From sequence record AY954948.1: a stretch of 15,603 nucleotides of DNA; one strand, written 5' to 3'. A program made the position numbers and the translations under genes. This DNA comes from Staphylococcus phage PT1028. Numbering within the stretch: the first letter of the stretch is position 1; every line of letters begins with the position of its first letter. Below are positions 3,325 to 4,032 of this stretch, one piece after another. The notes beneath the pieces are model-generated. The model was not told the origin of the DNA and made no database searches. It saw nothing but the letters and a program-made list of their open reading frames with translations.

Positions 3325-3837
3325 ATGAAACAGCAAATGTTATCAAAAGTATTATTAAGTACAGTCGTAGTTATGGGATCAATAGCAGGATCTTCTCTTG
3401 TAATGGATGACAACGCTCATGCTGAACAAAAAAGTGATAATATCGGGAAACTGAATCAAAAAAATGAAAGTACCTTGCATCTTTCATTTGAAAAGGGTAT
3501 TAAAGGGACTGTTGACAAAAATGGTAAGTTAACATTATCTGATGGAAAAACGTCAAAAGTGATGCCAACTAATGCTAAAGATAAAAAAGGTAACGATGTT
3601 GTTTTGGTTTATAAAAAGGTTAAAGATGGATTTGATGTTCAAGTAATTAAATCTAGTCAAGAGAGAAAAACTAACTGGGTTAAATGTGGTTTAGGAACAG
3701 TTGGAGGCGCTGGCACTGGTGGGCTAGGCGGTGCTAGTGCAGCTTCAGTTATACCAGGTTTAGGAACTGTTGCAGGTGCTATTATTGGTGGGGTTTCTGG
3801 TGGTGCCACAGGTGCCGCAGCGTCATGTTTCGGTTGA
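3325..3837 (+). CDS. Sec-secreted protein with a C-terminal glycine-zipper tail flanked by two Cys; bacteriocin-like
   Basis: GGAG RBS. The N-terminus MKQQMLSKVLLSTVVVMGSIAGSSLVMDDNAHA-EQ is a Sec signal with an AXA site. The mature protein has a Lys-rich beta-type domain followed by CGLGTVGGAGTGGLGGASAASVIPGLGTVAGAIIGGVSGGATGAAASCFG, which contains GxxxG repeats. Confidence 0.6.
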   Translation: MKQQMLSKVLLSTVVVMGSIAGSSLVMDDNAHAEQKSDNIGKLNQKNESTLHLSFEKGIKGTVDKNGKLTLSDGKTSKVMPTNAKDKKGNDVVLVYKKVKDGFDVQVIKSSQERKTNWVKCGLGTVGGAGTGGLGGASAASVIPGLGTVAGAIIGGVSGGATGAAASCFG

Positions 3838-3852
3838 TAGGAGAGTGAATTC

Positions 3853-4032
3853 ATGAAAAACTCTATACTTTGGCGAAAGTCGTTTATTCCTGTCTATTTT
3901 ATAGTTGCTTTTGTAATGTTCTTACTTTTTAAGTTTTATATTAGAACTGATAATTTTTCAGTTTATGTTTTGATAGCTTTTATAGTCATTTTAGGTTTTG
4001 CTTCTATTATATATAACTATAATAGACATTAA
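3853..4032 (+). CDS. 59-aa two-TM mini-protein; putative immunity protein for the upstream secreted protein
   Basis: GGAG sits 9 nt upstream, and the ATG is 15 nt after the upstream stop. The translation MKNSILWRKSFIPVYFIVAFVMFLLFKFYIRTDNFSVYVLIAFIVILGFASIIYNYNRH has two hydrophobic helices. It is not in the ORF track because of its size. Confidence 0.45.
   Translation: MKNSILWRKSFIPVYFIVAFVMFLLFKFYIRTDNFSVYVLIAFIVILGFASIIYNYNRH

Follow-up and report, generated by a model that had tools for sequence, protein, structure and literature searches.

We propose that two adjacent genes on Staphylococcus phage PT1028 (AY954948.1) form a toxin-immunity module for competition between bacteria. The window, by which we mean the whole stretch of 15,603 nucleotides that was analysed, represents one Staphylococcus aureus pathogenicity island (SaPI) of ~15.6 kb, and the two genes, which encode a 170-residue protein with a predicted secretion signal and a 59-residue protein with two predicted membrane helices, are part of its cargo. 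Judged from sequence, this reading is probable, though well short of certain. A bacteriocin with its immunity protein had already been suggested in an original prediction made from the letters of the DNA; homology, distribution and recurrence across islands now argue for that assignment, and the classic bacteriocin architecture that was part of it did not stand. What our computations show is the homology of the tail, the domain layout, the synteny of the two genes, the distribution of orphaned and decayed copies, purifying selection and the recurrence of the pair across SaPI types.

The finding that carries this proposal is that the C-terminal tail of the 170-residue protein is, by alignment, homologous to the mature part of cerein 7B-type class II bacteriocins, beyond a mere similarity of style. 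Residues 117–168 and mature cerein 7B are identical at 34 of 52 positions (65%) without gaps. The BLOSUM62 score of this alignment is 183, as against a mean of 57 ± 8 and a maximum of 96 for 2000 composition-preserving shuffles. Because the score lies so far above the shuffles (~15 standard deviations), the match is not explained by composition alone, and the tail that had been called bacteriocin-like acquires a characterised relative. The cerein 7B sequence was taken from the supplement of PMC10295673, in which the machine-read text holds 55 letters; the missing Gly was fixed by the paper's numbering (56 residues, G24AAAG28). When the tail alone was searched against 5.8 billion sequences, it matched a 74-residue protein of Bacillus mycoides (E = 6.4e-7) that bears the name 'Blp family class II bacteriocin' (PF10439), with 69% identity over 52 gapless positions, or 96% of the query. 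This protein has a textbook double-glycine leader, and its locus encodes two further PF10439 peptides, a C39-peptidase ABC exporter and an LcnD-like protein.

The correspondence extends to residues that matter for function. Cerein 7B is predicted to fold as two helices joined via a proline loop, and its activity requires W2, W3, W6, K8, both cysteines and the glycines of G24xxxG28 and G43GVSG47 (PMC10295673). In the SaPI protein, W118, K120, C121, P144, G155GVSG159 and C168 stand at the corresponding positions, and the spacing of the two cysteines, 47 residues, is the same in both. C121 and C168 are the only cysteines of the 170-residue protein and are invariant in an alignment of 59 members. 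The Gly/Ala-rich tail that these two cysteines had been said to bracket is evident in the composition, with 17 Gly and 10 Ala in the 48-residue stretch C121–C168 (both cysteines counted).

What surrounds the tail departs from its class. Cerein 7B relatives have a double-glycine leader and a C39 ABC exporter, as found in the B. mycoides and metagenomic double-glycine loci, whereas the SaPI protein has a Sec-type signal and an 83-residue beta domain; likewise, Blp-type peptides belong to a bacteriocin operon, whereas the SaPI pair sits on a phage satellite. The protein contains no double-glycine leader (LSxxELxxIxGG), and no GG motif stands before the peptide, which is preceded by SSQERKTN. Among the window's 56 listed open reading frames (ORFs), of which those of the accessory region were scanned with Pfam, none is annotated as a C39-peptidase ABC exporter or as an LcnD-like accessory protein, and only one, of 569 residues in the pri/rep region, is long enough for such an exporter. 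The original description of the protein as having the architecture of Gly-rich bacteriocins and microcins is thus not upheld. Scanned with Pfam, NCBIfam and PADLOC, neither the two proteins nor the separate tail gave a significant match. An identity as OsmB or another Gly-zipper lipoprotein (PF13488, PF13441) was rejected as compositional (E = 0.36–3.6, far below cut-offs). OsmB, Gly-zipper_Omp (PF13488) and YMGG (PF13441) share a Gly/Ala-rich helical segment of the small-xxx-small type with the SaPI protein, but OsmB-type lipoproteins, unlike it, have no Cys bracket, no proline-loop register and no immunity partner.

The N-terminus of the 170-residue protein is predicted to be a Sec-type signal peptide by sequence rules and conservation. 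K2 and K8 form the n-region, residues 9–26 an 18-residue hydrophobic core, and A31-H32-A33/E34 a cleavage site whose small-x-small pattern is kept in orthologues, in agreement with the Sec signal (AHA-EQ) of the original prediction. AlphaFold2, run on the protein with a 59-sequence alignment, models residues 41–110 as all-beta (pLDDT 85–94), which is consistent with the beta-looking domain that had been described, and places two low-confidence helices at 118–127 and 147–168. The 83-residue all-beta domain is not known to have a fold relative. The conserved and predicted cleavable Sec signal implies action outside the cytoplasm, which argues against an intracellular toxin-antitoxin or abortive-infection pair that would stabilise the island or block phage. 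Such a pair would be in keeping with the defence and addiction genes that SaPI accessory regions frequently hold and with the PemK/MazF-like gene at the other island end, and in having a small membrane toxin with a cognate partner it would bear a superficial likeness to some type I or holin-like systems. However, neither protein has a PADLOC match, the family is also chromosomal and non-mobile in Bacillus and Rhodococcus, and the closest characterised relative is an exported bacteriocin; we regard this explanation as very improbable.

The 170-residue protein has many relatives. A profile search of 1.84 billion cluster representatives retrieved 469 at E ≤ 1e-3 and 113 at E ≤ 1e-10, with double-glycine-leader peptides matched at 1e-9 to 4e-14. 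Three architectures are seen: (a) proteins of 160–190 residues with a signal peptide, the same beta domain (P81 and Y96 invariant) and the tail; (b) short double-glycine-leader peptides with the tail; and (c) proteins of 210–280 residues in which a lipoprotein-type signal and an unrelated N-domain precede the tail. Type (a) is found in Staphylococcus, Bacillus sonorensis, Paenalkalicoccus and Rhodococcus, the Bacillus and Rhodococcus members in plain chromosomal contexts, and its database names are solely 'hypothetical' or 'pathogenicity island protein'. Some type (a) members hold the full cerein N-terminus, GWWxxWGK/R-C, within the larger protein, and 22 of the 59 family members have Arg or Lys five residues before the first Cys. 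Taken at the level of sequence, this is a large unannotated family that joins a Sec-type signal and a beta domain to a cerein 7B-type tail. A class II bacteriocin with its immunity protein is already known as a kind of system, and the Sec-precursor route has precedents; what is new is that a cerein 7B-type peptide is fused to a preceding folded beta domain, that the unannotated family is so large and that SaPIs carry it.

The second gene of the pair has the position and shape that had been taken for those of an immunity gene. Hydropathy of the 59-residue protein peaks around residues ~16–24 and ~40–49, with basic residues at both ends and an RTDNFS loop in between; the two transmembrane helices originally proposed are thus predicted here as well, and by the positive-inside rule they would form an N-in/C-in hairpin. 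In all seven lineages that were examined and have the putative toxin gene intact, the next gene on the same strand, after a gap of 11–46 nt, is a small two-helix ORF. These lineages comprise two types of S. aureus SaPI, S. pseudoxylosus, a metagenomic contig (its protein being Ala/Pro-rich, of the high-G+C type), Rhodococcus, B. sonorensis, in which the ORF was previously uncalled, and the lipoprotein-type relative. Adjacent pairs also occur in an eighth lineage, Staphylococcus species found via the partner gene. Across the examined loci the partner measures 50–66 residues, and those of S. pseudoxylosus, the metagenomic contig and Rhodococcus are clearly homologous to the 59-residue protein, with the common motifs SxxW...F(I/A)(P/A)VY...LF...YN/RN. 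Double-glycine-leader relatives have a two-helix gene of 61–66 residues at the same position. The gene is therefore adjacent to the putative toxin across phyla, and it is also met as an orphan.

The distribution of orphans was surveyed in one genome per species with the 59-residue family, followed by tblastn with the toxin family. Intact pairs were found in S. petrasii, S. nepalensis and S. americanisciuri. Each of the six S. cohnii assemblies examined (L014–L018, L030) has, between pflB and the two-helix gene, a toxin homologue that is either truncated or broken up by stop codons and that gene callers skip, and the two-helix gene is intact (dN/dS 0.16); the homologue seems to have become fixed as a pseudogene next to a partner that is maintained. 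Staphylococcus sp. GSSP0090 has the partner gene with merely a short toxin remnant, and the two-helix gene is found on its own in S. hominis, S. canis, S. caeli, S. cornubiensis, a few S. aureus assemblies, Sporosarcina, Jeotgalicoccus and Planococcus. An intact toxin gene lacking its partner was not seen, with few loci sampled from the toxin side. As far as gene content can tell, this pattern of orphans and decay is the one expected of an immunity gene.

The same pattern bears on a cell-surface complex, in which the Gly-zipper hairpin would serve to tether the beta domain to the producer membrane, with the 59-residue protein as its partner, and the pair would serve envelope biology, host interaction or phage exclusion. 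A structural complex predicts joint loss, yet partners persist alone, intact beside decayed 170-residue genes and as orphans in many species, and the explanation is therefore disfavoured. The tail is hydrophobic enough for a membrane (GRAVY 0.9), Gly-zipper domains do anchor non-toxic lipoproteins such as OsmB (to which hidden Markov model matches are weak, E = 0.36–0.46), the neighbouring SaPI cargo scn and vwb is host-directed, and there are relatives with lipoprotein signals and different N-domains. A proven diffusible bacteriocin, however, is matched far more strongly than any Gly-zipper anchor family, and the defence systems of PADLOC offer no match that would favour phage exclusion. A surface complex thus seems to us quite unlikely.

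Both ORFs are real genes under purifying selection, because their dN/dS values against orthologues are low. Relative to the orthologous pair of another SaPI type, dN/dS is 0.04 for the 170-residue gene, at 97.6% identity between the island types, and 0.23 for the 59-residue gene; against other species, the values for the pair are 0.07–0.2. The two ORFs, their ribosome-binding sites (RBSs), the 15-nt gap from the 170-residue stop to the 59-residue start and the terminator are all found where they had been placed (Table 1). The terminator that had been assigned to the pair as its own is a hairpin with a T-run and a folding energy of -15.7 kcal/mol (z = -5.8 vs shuffles). The promoter-like match upstream of the first gene is at chance level, with 12 such sites observed in the region vs 12.7 expected from shuffles.

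Selection also weighs on the possibility that the pair is mainly defensive. The 59-residue protein would then shield its carrier against cerein 7B-like peptides of Bacillus or other staphylococci, and the 170-residue protein, weakened or inactive as a toxin, would have been retained for other reasons, e.g. inducing or stabilising the immunity protein. Resistance of this kind would be useful, as cerein 7B kills S. aureus (minimal inhibitory concentration 20 µg/ml); it inhibits L. lactis too, but not S. epidermidis or S. hominis (PMC10295673). The two-helix gene is the commoner of the two, with homologues in 41 clusters (all staphylococcal by name where named) vs 16 for the toxin, and it persists alone; Ala replaces a GxxxG glycine that is vital in cerein 7B, and W2/W3 are absent; and a peptide-resistance gene of the VraH family lies 700 nt upstream in the same accessory region. 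On the other hand, it is the 170-residue gene that is under the stronger purifying selection in S. aureus, an inactive toxin should decay, as it has in S. cohnii, and cross-immunity at ~65% bacteriocin identity is uncertain. We consider a mainly defensive role unlikely.

The pair lies in the 3' accessory region of the island, ~300 nt from its end, and terS and the attachment (att) core flank it, as expected from its reported location between terS and the island end. Because the att core occurs once in the window, we read the window as the circularly permuted (attP-like) form of the island, and its last and first ORFs adjoin in a related island. Packaging genes are also present. The same pair stands behind scn and vwb at the 3' end of cos-type SaPIs, whose variant of the 59-residue protein (P0029) is indexed in 1256 assembly blocks; recurrence in the 3' accessory regions of other islands, raised as a check in the original prediction, is thereby observed. 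The claim that the island cargo is a two-gene unit needs amending: the pair recurs, but what pac-type and cos-type (scn/vwb) SaPIs have in common is a longer block of 1.47 kb, with a third conserved ORF in it. The product of this ORF is charged and coiled-coil-like, without a Pfam or NCBIfam match, and may have a regulatory or accessory role for the pair. In S. pseudoxylosus, the att core occurs twice (L019 3752–3830 and 6783–6899), flanking a decayed island with a terS fragment and a toxin/two-helix pair. Full-text searches of the literature found no description of a bacteriocin-immunity pair on a SaPI.

Table 1. Features of the window on and around the two-gene cassette.
Feature	Coordinates	Strand	Basis or remark
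terS	1601..2170		Terminase_2, E = 1.7e-35
Shared block	2661..4128	+	1.47 kb, 83% nucleotide identity to cos-type scn/vwb SaPIs (SaPIbov5-like)
Third conserved ORF in shared block	2926..3207	+	93 aa, TTG start here; 76 aa in SaPIbov5-like islands (L002 5040..5270)
Promoter-like site TTAAGA-16-TATAGT	3249..3276	+	49 nt upstream of the 170-aa ORF; weak
RBS AAAGGAG for 170-aa gene	3310-3316	+	Read from sequence; 8 nt before ATG at 3325
170-aa ORF, gene for Sec-type secreted two-domain protein (predicted)	3325..3837	+	ORF listing; stop TGA 3835-3837
Coding parts of 170-aa gene			Predicted signal 1-33; beta N-domain ~38-110; basic linker SSQERKTNWVK; Gly-zipper hairpin 117-168
Predicted signal-peptide coding part, residues 1-33, cleavage AHA/EQ	3325..3423	+	Sequence rules and orthologue conservation
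Segment homologous to mature cerein 7B, residues 117-168	3673..3828	+	Gapless, 34/52 identity
RBS GGAGAG for 59-aa gene	3840-3845	+	Read from sequence; 7 nt before ATG
59-aa ORF, two-helix membrane protein, putative immunity factor	3853..4032	+	ORF listing, homologue searches, hydropathy, dN/dS
Intrinsic terminator at cassette end	4086..4117	+	Stem 4086-4109, then T-run
Att-core stretch	4305-4428		rpsR terminator hairpin 4388-4415; single copy in window
Attachment core	4350..4421	+	Last rpsR codons, KEEQ and stop (4350-4370), and rpsR terminator; island end near cassette
Integrase	5420..6634	-
stl-like repressor	6933..7676	-
Primase/replication genes	9047..11648

Based on the homology and gene layout, we infer the following mechanism for a toxin-immunity module. 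The 170-residue protein would be exported via Sec, with removal of the signal peptide after A33. Its C-terminal 52–54 residues are expected to form a helix-loop-helix hairpin that is stapled by a C121–C168 disulfide and held by small-xxx-small packing. Like cerein 7B, this hairpin would insert into the membrane of susceptible Gram-positive cells, with W118 and K120 anchoring it at the interface, and damage that membrane. The 83-residue beta domain, which stands in place of a double-glycine leader, may keep the hairpin soluble or inactive until an extracellular protease cuts the basic linker. It is also possible that the beta domain stays attached and serves as a targeting domain. In the producer membrane, the 59-residue protein would sit as an N-in/C-in hairpin and block insertion or oligomerisation of the toxin, thereby conferring immunity. 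At the level of the population, island carriers would be protected and neighbours that lack or lose the island would be killed, to the benefit of host and island.

Whether the toxin acts as a released peptide of ~55 residues or as the intact 14-kDa mature protein can be weighed from several hints, which favour release: the precedents of PAMP and closticin 574 (see below), the Rhodococcus protease, the conserved basic residues of the linker and the cerein N-terminus embedded in some members. In Rhodococcus sp. (L043 5001–5891), a gene for a trypsin-family serine protease (PF00089) with a hydrophobic, signal-like N-terminus directly follows the pair on the same strand, and its product is a candidate for the dedicated processing enzyme of that member. 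As a speculation, staphylococcal Glu-specific proteases might cut between SSQE and RK in the protein described here and between KE and GWAKC in the S. cohnii/S. nepalensis type. At a metagenomic double-glycine cerein-like locus (L046 6085–6588), a gene for a thioredoxin-like protein lies between the two-helix gene and the C39 ABC exporter, which would fit a need for formation of the peptide's Cys–Cys bond.

Several observations weigh against a toxin-immunity module and have to be set beside the evidence above. The equivalents of W2 and W3 of cerein 7B are K114 and T115 in the SaPI protein. Position 140, which corresponds to G28 of cerein 7B, is Ala in the S. aureus protein vs Gly in at least 90% of the family, and an Ala substitution at G28 abolished the activity of cerein 7B (PMC10295673); because the double-glycine-leader relative P0018 has the same Ala, this change may be tolerated. 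The tail is modelled with low confidence (pLDDT 33–55), and a hydrophobic C-terminal hairpin could equally be used as a membrane anchor in the producer. Neither the whole 170-residue protein nor its tail alone matches PF10439 or TIGR03949 at E ≤ 10; most of the score in these models comes from the leader and the first residues, and true double-glycine relatives reach only 16–24 bits. On the partner's side, no similarity of the 59-residue protein to a named immunity family was detected, and we do not claim its homology to the two-helix proteins of double-glycine loci, with which, by eye, size, position and topology alone agree. Finally, only six lineages were retrieved via the toxin gene, and loci retrieved via the two-helix gene are biased towards containing it.

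Other genes of the island were noted in passing. A 56-residue ORF at 2445..2615 (+), 275 nt after terS, matches the VraH family NF033835 (86 bits vs a cut-off of 40, E = 1.2e-24). VraH is the small third component of the VraDEH system, and a second gene of peptide warfare in the accessory region that holds the pair may be no coincidence. A camel S. aureus SaPI has a 56-residue hypothetical ORF at the VraH-matching position, within a stretch of 93–95% identity. Adjoining the integrase, a 265-residue ORF (4599..5396, -) encodes an N-terminal PemK/MazF-like toxin domain (PF02452, E = 2.8e-8), followed by a coiled coil of ~150 residues; it is possibly toxin or defence cargo at the other island end, and a 234-residue PemK_toxin protein is encoded downstream of the SaPIbov5-like island in L002. 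A direct repeat of 139 nt with 88% identity (12306–12444 and 14050–14188) is present further along. The ORFs at 12337..12846 and 14081..14722 have their first ~30 residues in common (MNIETIVNQFETRA.TLLRYYTGLLEHSKVQP) and then diverge, as if a SaPI gene had been duplicated or had recombined. At the nucleotide level, phage and plasmid searches returned nothing beyond one circularised SaPI that had been deposited as a plasmid and lacks the pair. This 14-kb camel S. aureus 'plasmid' (NZ_CP095113.1, L045) holds an entire SaPI (integrase, repressor, primase, cpmB, terS), probably one that had excised and was then assembled as a circle, and its cargo in the pair's place is an iron-hydroxamate binding protein and a methyltransferase.

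The cargo classes studied in SaPIs are superantigens, host-adaptation factors and anti-phage systems, and if the toxin-immunity reading is true, bacterial competition would be added to them. The pair is located on widespread, livestock-associated scn/vwb islands (their 59-residue variant P0029 is indexed in >1,200 assembly blocks), and it could affect strain replacement as well as coexistence with coagulase-negative staphylococci, several of which have the putative immunity gene as an orphan. The 59-residue gene would be a candidate resistance determinant against cerein 7B-type peptides, for which selective use against S. aureus has been proposed. Genome mining by double-glycine leaders and current hidden Markov models would miss this family.

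In the layout of its precursor, the SaPI protein resembles two secreted bacteriocins of Gram-positive bacteria. From PAMP (Propionibacterium jensenii, 198-residue Sec precursor) and closticin 574 (Clostridium tyrobutyricum, 309-residue precursor), a C-terminal peptide is released extracellularly. The logic is the same in all three, namely a signal of ~27–33 residues (a predicted one in the SaPI protein), a larger N-terminal part and a C-terminal peptide, the likeness considered here being one of layout. The review that describes PAMP mentions no immunity gene next to pamA, whereas the SaPI gene has a strictly linked partner.

That partner brings to mind a second comparison, with the colicins. 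Pore-forming colicins combine non-toxic N-terminal domains with a C-terminal, membrane-inserting helical hairpin, their warhead being a ten-helix bundle, and a small membrane immunity protein is encoded next to them. The modular logic of the SaPI family is the same, and its N-domains are also swapped (beta vs lipoprotein-type). There is no relationship of sequence or fold, however, and the SaPI protein is about a quarter of the size, Gram-positive, with predicted Sec-type export and a putative two-helix Gly-zipper warhead. By this analogy, we tentatively suggest, as a doubtful extension, that the family might represent 'mini-colicins' of Gram-positive bacteria, in which swappable N-terminal targeting modules, among them the beta domain and, in other phyla, lipoprotein-type domains, are joined to a cerein 7B-type two-helix warhead with a cognate two-helix immunity protein, and through which a SaPI could be retained and spread by killing island-free kin.

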